Positions 3,936 through 12,771 of a stretch of DNA of 64,000 nucleotides are shown one piece after another; the first letter of the stretch is position 1, and each line of letters starts with the position of its first letter. This stretch comes from an uncultured Verrucomicrobiaceae bacterium (GTDB lineage Bacteria > Pseudomonadota > Gammaproteobacteria > Pseudomonadales > CAMLJR01). The notes beneath the pieces were generated by a model, which had not been told where the DNA came from, made no database searches, and worked only from the letters and a program-made list of their open reading frames with translations. The translations under genes were made by a program, and so were the position numbers. Where the stretch lies: assembly GCA_964631955.1 (NCBI GenBank), contig CAZWBA010000002.1, forward strand, positions 12,508-76,507, written 5' to 3'.

Positions 3936-4012
<77 letters not shown>

Positions 4013-4020
4013 AATTCTTC

Positions 4021-4056
4021 AAAGGGTTACACGTATAAGCGCGTAGCCCTTTTTAA
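4021..4056 (+). terminator. Hairpin plus T-run after the tRNA
   Basis: AAAGGGTTAC (4021-4030) pairs with GTAGCCCTTT (4043-4052) with one G:U pair, followed by TTTTAATTT. Confidence 0.5.
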
Positions 4057-4120
4057 TTTGCGAAGCACATGTAACCTATATGTAAGCTTTTTATAGGTAC
4101 GCCATAAAGAAAATTAGCGT

Positions 4121-4363
4121 TTATTTTCGTTTGTGAAATTTTTCAAGCTCATGCACTAACGTTGAAGGCGAAATCCCCAAGCCCTCACAAAGAACAAAAA
4201 GTGTCCGCAATGTGGGCTGCCTAAGCCCTCTCTCCAGCATTGAAACAAACGTACGATCTATACCGCATTCCAAAGCCAACCTTTCTTGGGACAACCCTTT
4301 CTCCACCCGATGCTTTCGCAAGGCGTTGCCGAAAATCACTTCTAAATTATCGAACCCATCCAT
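4121..4363 (-). CDS. XRE-family helix-turn-helix transcriptional regulator
   Basis: 80-aa ORF with a typical Cro/CI HTH (LSQERLALECGIDRTFVSMLERGLRQPTLRTL). Confidence 0.85.
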   Translation of the reverse strand: MDGFDNLEVIFGNALRKHRVEKGLSQERLALECGIDRTFVSMLERGLRQPTLRTLFVLCEGLGISPSTLVHELEKFHKRK

Positions 4364-4379
4364 TGCGACAGGCTCGTAT

Positions 4380-4416
4380 GTTGAAGACTAATCATCCACG
4401 GACTATAGTCTTCAAC
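4380..4416. promoter_or_regulatory. Perfect 11-bp inverted repeat; operator candidate between the XRE gene and the lipoprotein gene
   Basis: GTTGAAGACTA (4380-4390) and TAGTCTTCAAC (4406-4416) are exact reverse complements separated by 15 nt. They lie in the 81-bp divergent intergenic region. Confidence 0.4.
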
Positions 4417-4444
4417 CTTACCCGCTCTAAACGGAATGAATCAC

Positions 4445-4977
4445 ATGAAAAAACTAGGCGTAATCATTCTGTCTATCGCCTTGAGCGCCTGCATTACAAA
4501 CTATGGAGATACCACCCCCGATAAGGTCGCAGCATCAGTTACTTTGCTAAATTCTGATTTCGATTCAACCAAAGAGTGGGGGGCCCCATAATTAGAAGTA
4601 CAACTCCACAGGGACCTTTTGTCGATGTGCTGGAAGTGCGAATTCGGACTATTCAAGACAAAAAAACCAACTTAACAAATTATCAAATTTATACAACTAT
4701 AGGCTATCAAGGAAGCTGGAGGTTTTACGAGCAGGTTAATTTCCTAGGGGGAGAACAGCAAAAGCTTATTGTCATTAATCGCAATGTAGAGTTTTGCTCC
4801 GGCTCCAGCTGTCACCATAAAGAAACAGTGGGATTTGACATAGCAGAAGCAACTCTAAAAGCCGCATCAGAACCTGGGCTAAGTTTTCGCTTAAACACCA
4901 AGATGGGGTTAAAAAATCAAGTCTCTATCTCTAGCAGCTACATCAAAGGATATTTAATGGCGATAAATCAACCTTAA
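4445..4977 (+). pseudogene. Lipoprotein gene split by a frameshift at a G6C4 tract
   Basis: The ATG at 4445 gives MKKLGVIILSIALSAC (lipobox LSAC) and stops at 4589-4591. The rest of the protein is the 4576-4977 ORF in another frame, which is open from 4558. Adding one G to the run at 4578-4583 would fuse them into a lipoprotein of about 177 aa. Confidence 0.6.
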
Positions 4978-4988
4978 CGCCAAACAAT

Positions 4989-5900
4989 TTATATTCGAAC
5001 TCTATCCATTGCCTCAGTAAAAGAAATATTGCCATCTCTCATATCTCTTTTTATGGCGTCTATATCACCAGGAGTAGGCAAACCCTTAACAAGCACTTGG
5101 CATTTGAGCGATAACCGATTTAAAAATTTGTTTATCTCATCTAAAATATGTTCGCGTAATACTGCTTGAGCACGTCTAAAACTCAACAATTTATCTAAAG
5201 TATAATACTCGGTACAAATTTCCTGAGTCATATCTCGACCATTCCATCCCCAAGTACTCGTTACTTTATTCATGTAAATTTTCTGCATACGCATGTATGT
5301 AGAAAAATCAAAATTATGTGAGAAGCCTTCCCGCTCAATATTCCTGAGATAAAATCTTGGGCCTACTCCATTGTATTTTTTTAGCCCTTTGAGAACACAC
5401 CTGAATCCAACAACCCCACCTAGGGATTTTGGCATCCTTACTGTCAGCATTCTCGACCTTCCAACAAAAACACATTTCTTTTTACAAAAAGCCCAATCAG
5501 CAGGAGGAACAACTTGCAAAAAAGAAAACCCCAAGTTGAAAACATGTTGTGCTGCGACACCATGGACATGAGCAAAGCCATCATCCATTACAATTTCAAA
5601 AACAGCTTTTCCTGTATCTACAAGATATGCAGCGATATATTCGACTGCACTACAAACAGTATCAACAGCATCATATCTATCGTATTCACCTATTGATCCC
5701 AAAACTTTAATAGCTATTTTGCAATCTTCTTCCTCTCCACGAATGTCGATAGAAAAACCTTTCTGCGTTGATCGTCCCCCAATTGGCATAATCCCAAGGG
5801 TGATATCTTCGGTGAACATATGAAGATTCGGAGAAATCTCCTGTCGTGATGAACAACTAGGAAAAAACAAAAACATTGAAGGCTTAATAGATTGCGGCAT
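4989..5900 (-). CDS. Hypothetical 303-aa soluble protein; downstream partner of the 860-aa gene
   Basis: Long ORF in AT-rich DNA, where spurious ORFs are unlikely. Its ATG lies 2 nt after the stop of the upstream gene. I see no TM segment and no recognisable catalytic motif. Confidence 0.7.
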   Translation of the reverse strand: MPQSIKPSMFLFFPSCSSRQEISPNLHMFTEDITLGIMPIGGRSTQKGFSIDIRGEEEDCKIAIKVLGSIGEYDRYDAVDTVCSAVEYIAAYLVDTGKAVFEIVMDDGFAHVHGVAAQHVFNLGFSFLQVVPPADWAFCKKKCVFVGRSRMLTVRMPKSLGGVVGFRCVLKGLKKYNGVGPRFYLRNIEREGFSHNFDFSTYMRMQKIYMNKVTSTWGWNGRDMTQEICTEYYTLDKLLSFRRAQAVLREHILDEINKFLNRLSLKCQVLVKGLPTPGDIDAIKRDMRDGNISFTEAMDRVRI

Positions 5901-5902
5901 CG

Positions 5903-8485
5903 TTATTTCCGACCCTCACTGTCGTCAGGCGCATATCTTTTTAACTCGCGCTCCAACATTTCCCCCAAATCCCTACCACTCCGATTAAAATCAATATCCT
6001 CTGCGCCGGGCTTTTTACTTAAATAATATGCAATGAATACATCAATACCATCATAAGGCCCCATTCCTCGATCACTCTGTGCAAAAATCCTTATCAGTGC
6101 ACTTGAATGATCAACCACAGTCCGCGAAGACAAAAATTGTCCCGCTAAAACATCACGGCGCTTAACACCTTTTAGCACTTGATTAATTCTCATCCTCCAA
6201 TTAGTACGCAAAATTCCTCTATGAGGAATTTCGAAAGCACCTTTCGTTAGAGATATTGCAGCACTCAATCTAGAAACAGCTTGCGCATCAGCATTGGAAA
6301 TATATGCATCCCATGCAAACTCTATCATTTCCCACAACTTCTGATTTTCATGAAAGTCTGCCATTAAACGCCCATAACCCGACAAATCCATTAAATCCAA
6401 TAACGGCGCACATGCAATTTTTATTTCCCGTTGAGCACGCCAATCTCCAGGATTTATTTTCGGAAGCAAACTTTCGAATCGAGCTATGCAACCAATTAAA
6501 TACCCCTTAAAAACATCATCCAATAACTCAACCTTACCTTTTAGTAAAGATTCCAAGCACGCCTCTCCAAATGTGTGCAAAAACTGGCCCGAATAATCAG
6601 GAAACCCTGGCGGCCTATCAATCAGAGAGAACTTGAGGACCTGGAGCGACATGCTCTTTAATAACTCTAATTTTCGATTTTCAATGTGGAGTAAAAGTTT
6701 TTGATGGTCATAATCCGGCCACAAAATTCCTTCAATTTTTTTTGAGCTTAGGCTCGACCACTTTTCAGCCCAAAAACTCAATTGATAATCAATTTTATGC
6801 CAATACTCCCACTCCCTGCTCATAATCGCACCCGCGAGCCATGGATGCTCATCACTCATATTATCTTTTATCCATTCTCGATAAATATTTGCGGCATCAA
6901 CCACAAGAGATTCCGTATTCTTGAAAAATATTTCCGCTTCTATCTGAATTATTAAACATTCGATATACCAAATTGGAGTAATCTGCTGCCCTTCAGACAA
7001 CCATTCAAAATTGAGGCGTGGAGCGAACCACTCCAGTCTAGGCAAGAAAAAATCTGAGAACCCGGATCGATACAAACTAGAATTATCTTTCCAATTTATT
7101 TTCAATAGATTTTTTTCTATATCGAAGCTTATGGAGCGCTCCACATACTCTCGAAAACCCAGTGCGACTGTGATAAAAACCGAGGTAAATCGCTCAATCG
7201 ATGCCAGCTTTTCTAGTGCTTTTTTGTGGGCAATTCCAGGCGATATAGGACTACAGTCGATGACACAATCACCAACGTATTTTAGAACATTAATTGAGCG
7301 GAAAGCCCCACCCCCTCCTGCCAACCCCTTTAGATACACCTCCAGATGACCGATAAGCTGAGTTACCTCAACATAAGCTCCATCTTTCAGATTTGTCTCT
7401 AAACAATCTCTGATAACTGATATTAGTTCTTCCTCAATCCATTCTTTATCATTCTCCACATCTGGATGTATTGCAGTACCTGTGTCATAAGCGATTGAAA
7501 CCCTAGTATCGTCTGTCTTATACCAGTCACGATGTATATATTTTTGCGCATACCAAAAACTCGCTGAAGGAATGTATTTTTTTCTACTCTCATAATAATG
7601 TAAAAAATTAAGCAATTTTTTTGACAGAGAAATGAAGGGTGTGCTGCGTAAATGAACTTCGCTTTTGGTAATATCTGAAAGAGTTCTCAAAACTTTCAAA
7701 TCTTTCATCGCAAGATTGTGGATATGCTTTTGAAACGAAGCATCTTCCCAACGATATCCGTCAACACTCACTAAATTTATATATTTAATCAACTGCCCAA
7801 ATAAATGATGGCTTAACGCCGTAGGATCGAAAAAATTAAATGCTCTTTGGCCCAACTTTACAAACGCGATAATTCCGACCCCAGCTGCTATTAGCATTAC
7901 TGGCACAGCGAGATACAGGCGCCCCATTCCAAGAACTCGAAATGCAATGAGCGATAATCCCAAAAAGGTAATTTGAGCCAAAAATTGCATATAGACATTT
8001 CCGACTCTGTCGTGAGCAAGCAAGTCACGAATATTATTTGGCACACTTGAATAAATTGCCCCACCGACTGTGCTTATTGCGGCATAGTACAAACCAATAA
8101 AGACCCCACCCATACCACTTATTGTTGCGAGCAATGTTACATAATCGGTATCGTCCGGTATTTTTAAAAAAGTAGGCTTATAGAATCCATAAACAATTGG
8201 ATCGATTAACTGGATAGCAACGGCCAAGCAAAAACCAACTACCAACTGCCGCTGGGTAATTAAAAATAAATTACGCAGCCCCGTGTAATCGGACACGCCC
8301 TCTCTTATAGTTCCGCGCACCGCAAAGACTTTGCTATTAACAAAAAATGTGGTTTTTCGTATCCACATACGCAAAGCCCAATAGAAAGGATTTTGCGATA
8401 AAACCATCTTTAGCCAATTACCCACCCGTACCTCCCATTTATAGTTTTGCTTACATTGCGTAATGCAGTATTTCCACACCTGCAT
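5903..8485 (-). CDS. Hypothetical 860-aa membrane protein: about 4 N-terminal TM segments plus a ~640-aa soluble region
   Basis: 2.6-kb ORF in AT-rich DNA with a GGAAGG Shine-Dalgarno sequence 6 nt before the ATG at 8485. Hydrophobic stretches include LVVGFCLAVAIQLIDPIVYGF, TLLATISGMGGVFIGLYYAAISTVGGAIY, VYMQFLAQITFLGLSLIAFRVLG and LYLAVPVMLIAAGVGIIAFV. The rest is rich in W/Y/F and has no P-loop, nuclease or other motif I recognise. Confidence 0.75.
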   Translation of the reverse strand: MQVWKYCITQCKQNYKWEVRVGNWLKMVLSQNPFYWALRMWIRKTTFFVNSKVFAVRGTIREGVSDYTGLRNLFLITQRQLVVGFCLAVAIQLIDPIVYGFYKPTFLKIPDDTDYVTLLATISGMGGVFIGLYYAAISTVGGAIYSSVPNNIRDLLAHDRVGNVYMQFLAQITFLGLSLIAFRVLGMGRLYLAVPVMLIAAGVGIIAFVKLGQRAFNFFDPTALSHHLFGQLIKYINLVSVDGYRWEDASFQKHIHNLAMKDLKVLRTLSDITKSEVHLRSTPFISLSKKLLNFLHYYESRKKYIPSASFWYAQKYIHRDWYKTDDTRVSIAYDTGTAIHPDVENDKEWIEEELISVIRDCLETNLKDGAYVEVTQLIGHLEVYLKGLAGGGGAFRSINVLKYVGDCVIDCSPISPGIAHKKALEKLASIERFTSVFITVALGFREYVERSISFDIEKNLLKINWKDNSSLYRSGFSDFFLPRLEWFAPRLNFEWLSEGQQITPIWYIECLIIQIEAEIFFKNTESLVVDAANIYREWIKDNMSDEHPWLAGAIMSREWEYWHKIDYQLSFWAEKWSSLSSKKIEGILWPDYDHQKLLLHIENRKLELLKSMSLQVLKFSLIDRPPGFPDYSGQFLHTFGEACLESLLKGKVELLDDVFKGYLIGCIARFESLLPKINPGDWRAQREIKIACAPLLDLMDLSGYGRLMADFHENQKLWEMIEFAWDAYISNADAQAVSRLSAAISLTKGAFEIPHRGILRTNWRMRINQVLKGVKRRDVLAGQFLSSRTVVDHSSALIRIFAQSDRGMGPYDGIDVFIAYYLSKKPGAEDIDFNRSGRDLGEMLERELKRYAPDDSEGRK

Positions 8486-8596
8486 ATAAGGCCTTCCATG
8501 ATTGACACCTAAAGGCTGTAACTCAATTTTTTAACGCGCGACTCAGCGCCCCCGCCCTTATAAATAGCGCCCAAAAGGGACCCGTTGCAACAGTTA

Positions 8597-8760
8597 CAAC
8601 CCACAACCCCACCCCTTTAAGGGGGGTGTGGTATGTGAGGGATATTGGCAATCCACAAAAATTGACAACCGGTACACAGCGGGAAGTGTGGGGCAAAGAG
8701 CACAGCCGATCCACATCCCCACATTAAATCCACAACGATGGCTTGGTGGACTGTGGTTAC
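8597..8760. repeat. CCACA/ATCCACA repeat cluster (iteron-like or DnaA-box-like)
   Basis: ATCCACA occurs at 8651-8657, 8709-8715 and 8728-8734. CCACA(A/T)CCCCAC occurs at 8601-8612 and 8711-8722. Inverted TGTGG/GTGTGGGG copies lie at 8627-8631, 8686-8693 and 8752-8756. A CCCC..GGGG palindrome is centred near 8617. The cluster sits between the RepA-like gene stop (8767) and the 860-aa gene start (8485). Confidence 0.45.
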
Positions 8761-8766
8761 TGCAAG

Positions 8767-9674
8767 CTACCTACAATCTACTGCGACGTGTTCGATTTCA
8801 CCATTAGCAACCAGCCCATCAAAAGCCCTTTGTAGCTGCTCACGCCGACTATCTCTTTTGCCCTCACCGATACCATCGGGTAGGTGCGATAACGCTGCAT
8901 CCACAATACTTTCTTTTGTAGGTAGGTCTAGATCGTTGTAGCTGTCATACGCTGCCAGTACCGCATTTTTATATTTGCTTTTATGCTTGGATCTGCCATT
9001 ACCACCTGGCGCATCGATATAATCAACAATGCAGGAAGTTTCTTCATCACCATATTCATCGTAACCGACTATTACAGGTCGTAGTTTGAAGGTTGCCAAA
9101 AGCCCATCGCGACCATCCTTCATTTTTGAAAGCATTACTCGACGCAAATTGCCGTCCTTAACTATTTCAATAGCTGAGTCCATCGCAGCCATTAAACTCG
9201 AATGCCCTCGCGCTCCGCGCGTCGCATCCTTACCGGTATGATGAACAAGCAGCACAAACGCTCCAGTTAACTTATGCAAATATTTACACGCAGCGATCAC
9301 ATTACCCATGTCACTAGAAGAATTTTCATCCCCTCCCGGCGTCACCTGCGCAAGCGTGTCGATTATGATAAGCGCTGCGCTCCCGCCATTAATTACTACT
9401 TCACCAATACTTTTTTCATCTTTAGCTAAGAAATTAGCTGGGGCATCAATAATGGATAAAGGTACATCATTTAAATCAATTCCATTTTCTGATGCATAAG
9501 CACGCAGTCGTTTTCGCACACCCCCGGCTCCCTCCGCCGCGAGATAAATAACTCGCCCTTGCCGAACACGCCGTCCTAACCATTCAATGCCCCTTGCGAC
9601 TGCAAACATCAAATCAAAAACAAAAAAAGATTTACCAGCAGAGGTTGGCGCATATACAACGCCTGATCTTTCCC
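8767..9674 (-). pseudogene. RepA-like AAA_25 (RecA-fold) ATPase, 5'-truncated by IS insertion
   Basis: The frame stays open upstream of the track's start and reads GVVYAPTSAGKSFFVFDL (Walker A). It runs straight into the IS terminal repeat at 9675. Further motifs are LIIIDTL (Walker B) and VLLVHHTGKDATRGARG. No N-terminal continuation exists beyond the other IS end. Confidence 0.7.
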
Positions 9675-9723
9675 TGATCTTCCCCCTGCATCAGTACCAC
9701 CTCAACAGTGAGAAATCATTTTA

Positions 9724-10542
9724 TCAGGCCGCCTGTTTTGCGTAGACCGCTGGTGGCAAATAGCCCAGCGAGCTGTGTGGCCTGACTTCGTTGTAGTGCT
9801 GTCGCCAGCGATCAATTTCAAAACGCGCCTCATCCAGATCGCGAAACCAATGTTGATTCAAACAACCATCGCGAAAGCGTGCATTGAAGCTTTCAACAAA
9901 TGCATTTTGGGTCGGTTTACCCGGCTGAATAAACTGTAGTGTCACGCCCTTTTCCTTAGCCCAGAAGAACATCGCCTTGCTCGTAAACTCCGTGCCGTTA
10001 TCGCTCACCGTCATCGCCGGCTTGCCGCGCTCTTCAATCAATTGATCCAGGAACCGCGCAACCTGACGACCGCCAATCGAAACCGCAGTGAGCTGACCGA
10101 TACATTCGCGGCTGAAATCATCAACGACGTTCAGCTCGCGGAAACGACGTCCATTGGCCAACTGGTCGGAGACAAAATCCATCGACCAGCGCACGTTGAT
10201 CCGAACCGGCAGCGGCATCGCAAAGCGAGGCCGGACCAGCTTCTTGCGCCGCTTCGTGCGCACCTGCAAATGCTCCTGACTGTAGATGCGATAGGTTCGC
10301 TTCCTGGTGATCACCAGCGATTCGGACTTGAGCAGGCTGTGCAGCATCAGATAGCCGTAACGCGGGTATTGCATCGCTAATTGCTTGAGCCTCTCGCGCA
10401 AAGCGCTATCGCCATGGCCAGTGGTCTGATACCGATACGCGGACCGGCTCATGCCGATCAAATGGCAAGCCTGCCGTTCGCTCACGAATTTGCCGGCGAT
10501 CAAATGCGTGATCGCCTGGCGCCGCGACGCAGGCGTTACCAC
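9724..10542 (-). CDS. IS3-family transposase OrfB (DDE integrase core)
   Basis: 272-aa ORF with rve-type motifs (WSMDFV, VSDNGTEFTS, RPHSSLGYLPP). It is normally expressed as an OrfAB fusion by -1 frameshifting. Confidence 0.9.
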   Translation of the reverse strand: MVTPASRRQAITHLIAGKFVSERQACHLIGMSRSAYRYQTTGHGDSALRERLKQLAMQYPRYGYLMLHSLLKSESLVITRKRTYRIYSQEHLQVRTKRRKKLVRPRFAMPLPVRINVRWSMDFVSDQLANGRRFRELNVVDDFSRECIGQLTAVSIGGRQVARFLDQLIEERGKPAMTVSDNGTEFTSKAMFFWAKEKGVTLQFIQPGKPTQNAFVESFNARFRDGCLNQHWFRDLDEARFEIDRWRQHYNEVRPHSSLGYLPPAVYAKQAA

Positions 10543-10802
10543 TTTTTTGAAACGACTTCCTTCAAAGCGGCGACATCGAGCATGGCATCGGCTAGCAAGC
10601 GCTTAAGCTTGGCATTCTCGGCTTCCAGCTCCTTCATGCGCCTGGCCTCGGAGACCTCCATGCCGCCGTAGATCGATTTCCAGCGGTAAAACGTGCCTTC
10701 GGCAATGCCGAGGCGGCGACAGATATCAGCCACCTTCGATCCCGCTTCATGCTCCTTAAGCGCGGTAATGATCTGTTCTTCGGTGTAGCGTTTCTTCTTC
10801 AT
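10536..10802 (-). CDS. IS3-family transposase OrfA (HTH plus leucine zipper)
   Basis: 88 aa, starting MKKKRYTEEQIITALKEHEAGSKVADICRRLGIAEGTFYRWK, which is typical of IS3/IS407 OrfA. It ends at the slippery site. Confidence 0.9.
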   Translation of the reverse strand: MKKKRYTEEQIITALKEHEAGSKVADICRRLGIAEGTFYRWKSIYGGMEVSEARRMKELEAENAKLKRLLADAMLDVAALKEVVSKKW

Positions 10803-10961: not shown

Positions 10962-11528
10962 TCAGAGAAACTCAACAAACTCTTTGAGCTTCGACACCGT
11001 CTGTGGAAGTTGCTGTTTTTGGAGCGTCGTTAAAAAACCCTCAACACTCACTTCCGGATTCTTCAGCGCAAGTCGCTGATTTTTTATAGCCAAGCAGCAA
11101 ATCGATGGCGCCATATCGAGCTGATAATAAATAAAGTCATCGGGGTGCAGCACGTCGATACCGTATGGCGACAATATCGACTCTGGAAAATCTTTCAGAT
11201 TGAAAGTGACAATGGCATCGGCACCGCAACGTATAGCCGCTGCAAGTACGTGACGATCATCTGGATCTGGCAGTTCAAACGTATTAATCAAAGACTCATA
11301 GCCAGTGACTTTCGCATCTCGTACATGCGCATCCATCAGTGCACGCACACGCGCCAATGCTTCGGGTTTGAATTTATTTTCACGTAATAGCGCATTTGTC
11401 CACTCGTCGTGAATTTGATCCGTCCAATGCGCCTTGAATAAATCGGTCATCGCTAATCGCATCAATGTATCCCGCAGTGGAGCGGGATAGAGAACGCAAG
11501 CGTCGTAAATGACGGTGAACTTGCTCAC
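10962..11528 (-). CDS. PIN-domain toxin (VapC-like)
   Basis: 188 aa. Acidic PIN signature residues are in the expected context (VIYDACVLY, PDPDDRHVLAAAI, IVTFNLKDF). It starts 5 nt after the upstream HTH gene. Confidence 0.8.
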   Translation of the reverse strand: MSKFTVIYDACVLYPAPLRDTLMRLAMTDLFKAHWTDQIHDEWTNALLRENKFKPEALARVRALMDAHVRDAKVTGYESLINTFELPDPDDRHVLAAAIRCGADAIVTFNLKDFPESILSPYGIDVLHPDDFIYYQLDMAPSICCLAIKNQRLALKNPEVSVEGFLTTLQKQQLPQTVSKLKEFVEFL

Positions 11529-11533
11529 AGGGC

Positions 11534-11986
11534 TCAGTACCCCATGTTCTCTTCTTGGGATAGCGCTGCAAGCTCATCCAGCGCTTGGGTGCGGAGATTA
11601 GCGGTCTTTTCCCTATACGCCAGCACATCTTTCAACAGCACACGGCGATGAGCACCAACCTTACGGAAGGGAATCTCACCTTTTTCAAGGAGACTCACCA
11701 GAAAGGGGCGGCTGACATTAAGCAGATTTGCAGCTTCCTGCGTGCTGACCTCCTGGTGATGGGGGATCAGACTGATGGCATTACCTTTGGACATCTCCGA
11801 CAGCACGTCCAGCAGAATCTGCAGCACCTGCCCTGGCAATACCAAATCGTCCGATTCGCCATTACTGCCACGCAGCGAGAGCTGCACTCTGTCGGTATTG
11901 GCATACTTCGAAAGCGTGCGGCTGGAAATCTTGGCCTGCTCAGCCTCCGCACTGGTGGGCAAGTGAATTATTTTTTGGGTGGACAT
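11534..11986 (-). CDS. Excisionase-type HTH antitoxin partner of the PIN toxin
   Basis: The C-terminal HTH (STQEAANLLNVSRPFLVSLLEKGEIPFRKVGAHRRV) is typical of the excisionase/MerR-like DNA-binding domain paired with PIN toxins. I prefer the ATG at 11986 (MSTQKIIHL). Confidence 0.7.
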   Translation of the reverse strand: MSTQKIIHLPTSAEAEQAKISSRTLSKYANTDRVQLSLRGSNGESDDLVLPGQVLQILLDVLSEMSKGNAISLIPHHQEVSTQEAANLLNVSRPFLVSLLEKGEIPFRKVGAHRRVLLKDVLAYREKTANLRTQALDELAALSQEENMGY

Positions 11987-12287
11987 ATCGAAACCTCCTG
12001 AACTGCTCTCCAGCACTACAAAACCATGTCTTGCAGACTATCATGGGCGAAACATACGAAACAAACGAAATATTCGAAAAAAATGCACAGATCGAGGCTC
12101 CTTGTATCTGAAAATATATTGGCCATGCAGTTCGCATGTTCTGGAGTGGGTATGAGAGAGGGTGCAAATATGGAGATGAACAGATTATGGATTCATCCAG
12201 GACATGGAACCTGATTCAAGTTGATGCGAAGAATCACCATAATCCATAATTGAGCTGGCCTATTTCAGGCGGATGCGCTCGGGATAA

Positions 12288-12308
12288 CAAATCCGGCTCC
12301 GCTACAAA
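12288..12308 (+). repeat. Degenerate direct repeat of the tRNA-fMet 3' end (candidate attR)
   Basis: CAAATCCGGCTCCGCTACAAA aligns with the tRNA 3' end CAAATCTGGCCCCCGCTACCAAA. The blocks CAAATC, GGC, CCGCTAC and AAA are shared, with 2 indels. It lies immediately upstream of a strong terminator. Confidence 0.4.
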
Positions 12309-12312
12309 CCCC

Positions 12313-12343
12313 AAAGGCTCGCTTCGGCGAGCCTTTTTTATTT
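12313..12343 (+). terminator. Rho-independent terminator; likely the displaced native tRNA terminator
   Basis: AAAGGCTCGC (12313-12322), a TTCG loop, GCGAGCCTTT (12327-12336), then a T-run. Confidence 0.6.
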
Positions 12344-12417
12344 GCCAAGTTATTCCAGCGAACAATTTATTCCAGCAACACTTTATTCCAGTAATAATCA
12401 CTCATCGGGAGAAATAC

Positions 12418-12771
12418 ATGTCTATTCCCTCATTGCTGAAACGACTGCGTAGCGCTCCTGAATCCGTTGAGTTTCCCCGCGTCATCGAAACAATCAACGC
12501 ACATTACGAGTACACGCCGACCCACTTCACCAACGGCGTCGGTGTCGATTGTGTCGTCAATGCAATGGGAACCAACGAAGGCTCGTGCCGTATTTTTGCA
12601 TTCGCGCAATTGAATCATTTGAATGAGGCGGAAACACTGGCGTGCTTCGGACAGTTTTATCGCGATGTGTTAAACACACCGGATGGAACCGACCACGCGA
12701 ATATTCGGACGTTCATGCGTCATGGCTGGCAAGGCATTCATTTTTCAGGTCCTGCCTTAAAGAAGAAATAA
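12418..12771 (+). CDS. HopJ type III effector family protein
   Basis: MSIPSLLKRLRSAPESVEFPRVIETINAHYEYTPTHFTNG...GSCRIFAFAQL...ACFGQFYRDV matches my memory of the HopJ family. The track ORF start at 12250 would cross the terminator, so I prefer the ATG at 12418. Confidence 0.75.
   Translation: MSIPSLLKRLRSAPESVEFPRVIETINAHYEYTPTHFTNGVGVDCVVNAMGTNEGSCRIFAFAQLNHLNEAETLACFGQFYRDVLNTPDGTDHANIRTFMRHGWQGIHFSGPALKKK

Follow-up and report, generated by a model that had tools for sequence, protein, structure and literature searches.

The window analysed here, 64,000 nucleotides (nt) of contig CAZWBA010000002.1 (assembly GCA_964631955.1), carries on its minus strand a pair of genes at 4989-8485 that encode a large membrane protein and a soluble partner. 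We favour the view that the pair is a defence or anti-mobile-element module, horizontally mobile and directed against tailed phages or other invading DNA. This reading, to which we give a probability of about 0.55-0.65, is drawn from the genomic neighbourhood of homologous pairs. The large gene ('BIG', 5903-8485) was listed as an open reading frame (ORF) of 860 amino acids (aa), the partner gene (4989-5900) as one of 303 aa. According to its predicted structure and profile comparisons the partner is a portal-fold protein, probably a very diverged, shortened homologue of the HK97-type portals of phages.

The stop codon of the large gene (5905-5903) is separated by a spacer of 2 nt from the ATG of the partner gene (5900-5898), so that the junction spans 5898-5905 on the minus strand. 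From this layout the original prediction, made from the window alone, had proposed a co-transcribed and translationally coupled unit. Both the ORF coordinates and the homologous loci bear this out. Wherever the large gene was intact and the locus extended far enough downstream, a homologous ORF of 300-330 aa lay directly behind it, and the pairing was seen across more than 10 phyla. Among 31 homologous pairs the junction was a 4-nt overlap in 17, a 1-nt overlap in three and a gap of 2-12 nt in another three; the remaining eight had overlaps of 23-53 nt, where the start was probably called too far upstream, ORFs having been called from the first in-frame start. The pairwise-identity matrices of the large protein and the partner correlated with r = 0.91 (31 intact pairs). 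Thus the two genes are a real, co-inherited and translationally coupled module. Even the most distant clade (Omnitrophica, Dojkabacteria of the candidate phyla radiation (CPR) and locus L145) keeps the pairing, with a large protein that is 24-28% identical to that of the main clade and aligns to it by hhalign with 26% identity and a probability of 100. In this clade a further gene follows the partner. It was considered as a third component and rejected, the versions in L042 and L044 being non-homologous.

The pair had also been called an orphan, which it is not. In a word-indexed search the large protein had at least 271 full-length relatives, unnamed throughout and 38-55% identical to it, and an exhaustive profile search returned 1,464 clusters at 50% identity with E ≤ 1e-3, 864 of them with E ≤ 1e-30. 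Most of the matches listed are 800-880 aa long; shorter ones cover part of the profile only. For the partner five relatives were found in the first search and 70 clusters by a later profile search. The hosts comprise Gamma-, Beta- and Alphaproteobacteria, Latescibacterota, Poribacteria, Binatia, Terriglobia, Firmicutes (Peptococcaceae, Paenibacillaceae), Syntrophaceae and CPR bacteria. A two-pattern scan detected the large gene in 37 of 185,579 species genomes. Cultured carriers are Pseudomonas putida PSE9, Neptuniibacter marinus, Dyella mobilis, Paraburkholderia lycopersici and, on a plasmid, Burkholderia glumae. The patchy spread across phyla indicates a horizontally moving module. Broken copies were encountered as well (L017, L033, L034, L036 and L038-L041), in which a frameshift or an inserted element interrupted the large gene, the partner was halved, or fragments only were left; they suggest rapid gain and loss. 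Many homologues are located on contigs of about 4.2 kb. A circular or discrete element of this size was tried as an explanation and dropped, as terminal overlaps were absent and the offsets of the genes varied; we judged the common length to be a selection effect of short metagenome contigs.

The partner has no hydrophobic segment in hydropathy analysis. Its AlphaFold model reached a predicted local distance difference test (pLDDT) of 89.4 and a predicted template modelling score (pTM) of 0.88. When the model was compared with the PDB by Foldseek, the top 24 matches were all phage portal proteins, among them those of phage 812, G20c, HK97, 80alpha, lambda, SPP1 and T7; against BFVD all top 50 matches were portals, with E-values down to 5e-6. 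The match probability was 1.0 for the top nine PDB entries and at least 0.54 throughout. Query-normalised template modelling (TM) scores were mostly 0.38-0.53, with 0.43-0.48 for most of the best PDB matches, while the five weakest PDB matches had 0.28-0.36. The partner had previously been labelled a soluble sensor: its solubility holds, and the generic sensor label gives way to the more specific portal fold.

The structural similarity was accompanied by a weak signal at the level of sequence profiles. A portal profile was built from 14 diverse HK97-type portals of GenBank phages (375-491 aa), because the relatives of the HK97 portal in IMG/VR were all 96-100% identical and unusable for this purpose. 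Local hhalign comparison of the partner with this profile gave scores of 24.2-24.8 with P-values of 0.024-0.029. After column shuffling of the first partner alignment none of 150 controls reached the score of 24.8 (mean 14.8, standard deviation 2.6; z 3.9), and with a 96-sequence partner alignment none of 120 shuffles reached the observed score (z 3.4). Further controls were at noise level: the reversed sequence scored 13.3, and the unrelated large protein yielded a P-value of 0.51. The alignment runs co-linearly through almost the entire partner and pairs three hallmark motifs of the partner with those of the portals, namely GxAxYEI with GNAYA, TxxWGWN with ARFFGVP, and GLPT..G.ISF.E with GLLRGD..G...NE.R. 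The partner profile had no match in PDB sequences, and the PHROG families weakly matched by members of the partner family are all unnamed. The models are consistent with a homologue, or else a structural mimic, of HK97-type portals. Although the partner shows the fold, it was not filed as a bona fide virion portal because neither membership in a portal sequence model nor the genomic context agrees with such an assignment.

A portal-like fold could mean that the pair is a remnant of a decayed prophage, the partner being its portal gene and the large gene encoding a prophage membrane protein, e.g. for superinfection exclusion, and a phage-type primase-helicase fragment in the same island of the window (see below) would fit. 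Yet, neither terminase nor protease nor capsid genes adjoined the pair in about 40 loci. Neither protein occurred in 50,697 phage genomes, and a pattern scan of IMG/VR revealed no relative of the large protein. Moreover, the partner is 303 aa long compared with the 375-491 aa of the sampled HK97-type portals and matches no portal hidden Markov model (HMM). A prophage origin of this kind is thus highly improbable.

Hydropathy analysis of the large protein identified four hydrophobic helices at residues ~79-102, 115-145, 164-186 and 191-214. They are also seen in the AlphaFold model and are predicted to span the membrane, and the loop charges suggest by the positive-inside rule an N-in/C-in topology that would place both termini, including the 640-aa C-terminal domain, in the cytoplasm. 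The transmembrane module (residues ~79-214, 7844-8251 on the minus strand) together with its cytoplasmic loop VPNNIRDLLAQERxGNVYM is the most conserved part of the protein in the alignment; invariant columns are Y115, G127, F129-Y134, Y145, P149, L156, G162, Y165, L169, G204, F208 and L211. The remainder (residues ~215-860, 5906-7843) is soluble and, as had been noted before together with the helices, rich in aromatic residues, with 2.9% W, 4.2% Y and 5.3% F. The AlphaFold model of the large protein is all-alpha with a pLDDT of 82.9 and a pTM of 0.76. In a Foldseek search against the PDB it found generic helical-repeat proteins only (TM-score <0.2) and for the cytoplasmic domain no structural neighbour; the profile of the large protein had no match in PDB sequences. 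A HEPN-like R-x5-H motif (SREWEYWH) was considered and discarded since several members of the family have N or S in place of the histidine.

The true start of the large gene is probably the GTG at 8425-8423, which would yield a protein of 840 aa, because a probable ribosome-binding site, GGGAGG (8436-8431), is located 5 nt upstream and the N-termini of the homologues align from there. The homologues are 843-845 aa long and begin at residue ~21-27 of the window ORF.

The claim that neither protein bears a catalytic or defence signature was upheld by scans of family libraries. Neither of the two matches Pfam, NCBIfam, PADLOC v2.0.0 or PHROGs, and in RefSeq both are labelled 'hypothetical protein'. 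PADLOC-DB v2.0.0, which includes Kiwa, Zorya, Abi families and 145 PDC models, was run as had been proposed and returned no family for either protein at E-values up to 1. Scanning both alignments member by member disclosed no consistent family, nor did a consistent Pfam family emerge across 43 members of the large-protein family. No toxin or antitoxin family was matched, and sizes of 840 and 303 aa are unlike those of a type II toxin-antitoxin pair. With respect to a PrrC-type ABC-ATPase or anticodon nuclease, neither a P-loop nor a nuclease family was found in Pfam, NCBIfam and PADLOC. By profile no match to a housekeeping or otherwise characterised family was detected, whereas such a match would have spoken against the original prediction; the sole structural match of the partner is to portals.

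The genomic contexts of the homologues were derived from ORF maps and clustering, with Pfam searches on representatives. Fifteen of the 31 loci with flanks are located inside or beside restriction-modification operons. Eleven of the loci belong to type I operons (L002, L009, L010, L017, L019, L022, L027, L030, L031, L036 and L037), and in L002, L009, L010, L017, L027, L030, L031, L036 and L037 the pair stands between or directly after the hsd genes on the same strand. The usual orders are hsdM-(hsdS)-BIG-partner-hsdR or hsdM-BIG-partner-hsdS...hsdR. In two of the loci (L002 and L037) hsdS runs into the start of the large gene, and an overlap with hsdS or hsdM was noted in some loci. Elsewhere the pair comes after a type III res/mod pair (L007), a type ISP enzyme (L014), an Eco57I-type methylase with a PLD-SNF2 helicase (L013, L015 and L018) or an HTH-SNF2-NOV_C helicase (L021); L044 adjoins a type II system. 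A DUF4011 helicase was among the further neighbours, and in L009 and L030 the pair stands ahead of a gene for a Schlafen-domain protein. As an observation apart, the hsdS genes directly upstream of the pair in L010 (7444-9332) and L037 (8092-9986) encode an N-terminal Polbeta-type nucleotidyltransferase domain and are preceded by a HepT/NTase_sub_bind gene, so that a MNT-HEPN toxin-antitoxin module appears to be fused into hsdS.

Such an arrangement raises the question whether the pair is an accessory of restriction-modification systems. A membrane-anchored portal-like ring might hold or thread incoming DNA at the inner membrane so that translocating enzymes (types I, III and ISP) meet it early, or the pair might act as a PrrC-like guard of the restriction complex. 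The 15 restriction-associated loci, mostly of ATP-dependent translocating types, and the translational coupling of some copies to hsdS or hsdM agree with this proposal. On the other hand, the window copy, L003, L126, L143, L144, L145 and many of the loci from GTDB are devoid of nearby restriction genes; the embedding in a restriction operon is absent for the window copy, where no restriction genes were found nearby. Furthermore, the associated restriction types are mutually unrelated, which fits the insertion of cargo better than a specific partnership. Thus we regard a role as restriction accessory as unlikely.

Mobile and variable regions constitute the second type of context. L127 and L129 share a hotspot between sucCD plus an acetyltransferase gene and SpoU...mutS. 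Both contain the pair but differ in the remaining cargo: in one genome GmrSD is joined by a HsdM fragment, in the other HsdR by a DNA methylase, a reverse transcriptase and Fic. In L128 the pair is located between hsdR plus an AAA_15/21 ATPase gene and IS66. L126 and L145 are integrase islands. The Burkholderia glumae copy (L143) resides on a conjugative plasmid (NZ_CP021077.1, 141130-149184) in the order IS66-VapBC-pair-IS66; the two IS66 copies are identical, and this composite-transposon-like layout could move the pair. The other 15 loci from GTDB are heterogeneous, some with defence-type matches (MADS, DRT, UvrD-like) and others with housekeeping genes. Taken together, the homologues keep both genes adjacent and recur in non-core settings, i.e. 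in restriction operons, hotspots, integrase islands and on plasmids, which is the enrichment near defence and mobile genes that had been anticipated.

The housekeeping genes in some neighbourhoods leave room for a membrane function outside defence, such as envelope stress, transport or signalling, of genes that merely ride on variable regions, the more so as neither protein contains a recognisable effector or sensor domain. Yet, the distribution across phyla is extremely patchy, immune operons are the only conserved neighbourhood, and pseudogenes are frequent (L017, L033, L034 and L036). In addition, we know of no housekeeping role of the portal fold. We therefore assign a low probability to a non-defence function.

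The preferred reading as a defence or anti-mobile-element module draws on an experimentally supported predictor. When genes embedded in immune operons were examined, 7 of 9 tested candidates worked, and 145 candidates were added to PADLOC (Payne et al. 2024, bioRxiv 10.1101/2024.01.29.577857). Because the pair is embedded in immune operons in the same manner, a defence role gains in likelihood. Full-text literature searches produced no description of a host-encoded portal-like defence protein. Of the novel membrane-acting defence or abortive-infection module of the original prediction the module itself, the lack of a match to known catalytic or defence families and the immune and mobile context stood; the defence function and the membrane-acting, abortive mechanism are putative. 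The membership of the neighbouring XRE regulator and lipoprotein genes did not, because these genes recur in no other locus.

Several points weigh against a defence module that employs a portal-like protein. Defence is deduced from gene neighbourhood alone. No restriction system is present within 10 kb of the window copy and of about half of the loci, and the mixed neighbourhoods of the 15 heterogeneous loci include housekeeping genes. As to the partner, TM-scores to portals are moderate (0.43-0.53), the hhalign P-value of the comparison is only 0.02-0.03, and no portal HMM of Pfam was matched by 63 members at E-values up to 10. The alignment, here of low confidence, suggests that ~45 residues are absent from the partner, in the stem region and the tunnel loop; since these parts seem to be missing, it may not form a DNA channel. 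Finally, the formation of a ring, the binding of the partner to the membrane protein, any trigger and any permeabilisation of the membrane are putative.

How might such a module work? In phages the portal nucleates head assembly and docks the terminase. We propose that the partner attaches to the membrane protein at its cytoplasmic domain and mimics the phage portal. In an infected cell, those phage proteins for head assembly or packaging that recognise the portal fold, such as the large terminase, the scaffold or the capsid protein, would then engage the partner. Such engagement would titrate the assembly and packaging proteins at the membrane. In addition or instead, it would switch the transmembrane bundle to a leaky state, whereupon the membrane potential would collapse and the cell would die before the release of phage, i.e. 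by abortive infection. Acting late, such a layer would complement the restriction enzymes that travel with the pair and act early. This specific mechanism, a bait or poison in which a membrane-tethered portal look-alike targets the head-assembly and DNA-packaging machinery, is coupled to membrane damage and represents a phage portal co-opted for bacterial immunity, is tentative and clearly less probable than a defence role as such.

If a defence role is correct, a large cross-phylum family pair without a match in Pfam 2025, NCBIfam 2026, PADLOC v2 and PHROGs would join the bacterial immune repertoire. Going by the literature searched, this would be the first time that a viral portal forms the basis of a cellular immune module, and also the first non-virion role of a portal adopted by cells. 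If the partner were a bait for terminase or capsid proteins, sensing by fold mimicry would be a new principle in bacterial defence, and phages would find the bait hard to escape because the recognition of their own portal is not easily changed. The pair is directly testable as cultured hosts carry it.

In the window the pair sits in a decayed tRNA-linked island that consists of the XRE gene, a lipoprotein gene with a frameshift, the pair, a truncated primase-helicase gene and a PIN/HTH pair. The tRNA-Met(CAT) gene at 3936-4012 adjoins the low-GC stretch of the pair. Read from the sequence it has the features of an initiator tRNA, a 1:72 mismatch and a GGG/CCC anticodon stem, in agreement with its earlier designation. 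The pair lies, as had been stated, in the most AT-rich part of the window: the G+C content (GC) of 2-kb windows at 4001-8000 is 0.395-0.406, the lowest of the 64 kb. It amounts to 0.46 in the 2 kb after this stretch, a value that none of the remaining 2-kb windows falls short of; past 10 kb it is at least 0.505 throughout. A second copy of the tRNA 3' end, which would mark the boundary of the island, was not found within the window. Upstream of the large gene is a 281-nt spacer with an imperfect GC-rich inverted repeat, CCACACCCCCC...GGGGTGGGGTTGTGG, at 8590-8640 on the minus strand. Scans for promoters and terminators gave counts at chance level and were uninformative.

The XRE protein (4121-4363, minus strand, 80 aa) has its best PADLOC match in the restriction-modification 'Control_protein' (C-protein) models with an E-value of 4e-16. 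As the island is without restriction genes, it may be a leftover of a lost restriction system. The lipoprotein gene (4436-4977, plus strand), which has the lipobox LSAC, is broken at a G6C4 tract (4578-4587) into two frames, 4436..4591 and 4576..4977, that one extra G would join; the split could be due to phase variation, a pseudogene or a sequencing error. On the minus strand, 8767-10802 takes in the remnant of an AAA_25 primase-helicase gene and an IS3-family element (orfA 10536-10802, orfB 9724-10542) that cuts it on the N-terminal side. Of the protein the C-terminal 281 aa are left, which match phage or satellite primase families. An overlap-free pair at 10962-12016 (minus strand) codes for a PIN_3 protein (188 aa) and a HTH_17 protein (160 aa) and is probably a toxin-antitoxin-like module. 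Next come a HopJ-family gene at 12250-12771 and then the core genes efp and earP. Overall, the island resembles a decayed satellite or integrative element that has no integrase left.

The location of the window copy, next to a truncated primase-helicase gene and in an island linked to a tRNA, is also compatible with a pair that serves mobile elements (satellites, islands or plasmids) as a weapon against helper phages or competing ones, where the portal homologue would disturb or redirect capsid assembly and packaging for the benefit of the element. The integrase islands L126 and L145 and the conjugative plasmid of L143 with its IS66 copies point in the same direction. Phage satellites carry homologues of phage structural genes and have capsid-redirecting proteins. 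However, most copies of the pair are found in restriction operons or chromosomal hotspots without satellite genes, and no other morphogenesis gene ever adjoins the pair. From the point of view of the host cell, the result would nonetheless be interference with the phage. We grant this explanation a chance as small as that of a restriction accessory.

Compared with known systems, the closest proteins are the HK97-type portals (Phage_portal, PF04860; HK97 gp3, G20c, 80alpha, phage 812), which resemble the partner in the predicted fold and the three co-linear motifs. They differ in that the partner is about 100 residues shorter, has no HMM-level match and, in the low-confidence alignment, seemingly lacks part of the stem and the tunnel loop. 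While HK97-type portal genes adjoin terminase, protease and capsid genes, the partner gene never does and is always accompanied by the membrane-protein gene. Closest by habit are the cassettes of type I operons, i.e. PrrC, DarTG2, TgvAB and the PDC candidates of Payne et al. (2024). Like these, the pair is found between hsdM/hsdS and hsdR, in some cases with overlapping frames, and also stands alone. PrrC, DarTG2, TgvAB and the PDC candidates are, however, unrelated to the pair in sequence, and the pair has no ATPase, nuclease or ADP-ribosyltransferase domain.

In architecture the pair comes closest to Kiwa, which consists of KwaA, a four-helix membrane protein, and the soluble KwaB of ~310 aa, similar in size to the partner. 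Kiwa has been proposed to sense phage at the membrane. In contrast to Kiwa, the membrane protein described here has ~840 aa with a large cytoplasmic domain, no PADLOC Kiwa model was matched, and the partner has a portal fold whereas KwaB belongs to DUF4868. San Juan, a two-gene abortive system with a four-transmembrane protein, was obtained from metagenomic selections (PMC12366544). We set it apart by its description: because the inserts of these libraries average 2 kb and the pair needs 3.5 kb, it is very unlikely that San Juan is this pair. Escape mutants of Dallas from the same work map to the terminase side that faces the portal (PMC12366544). The packaging vertex is also the theme of Avs1-4, which sense phage portal or terminase. 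Yet, the Avs proteins, which are STAND ATPases, bind the protein of the virus, while the pair of the window would present a host-encoded look-alike of it.

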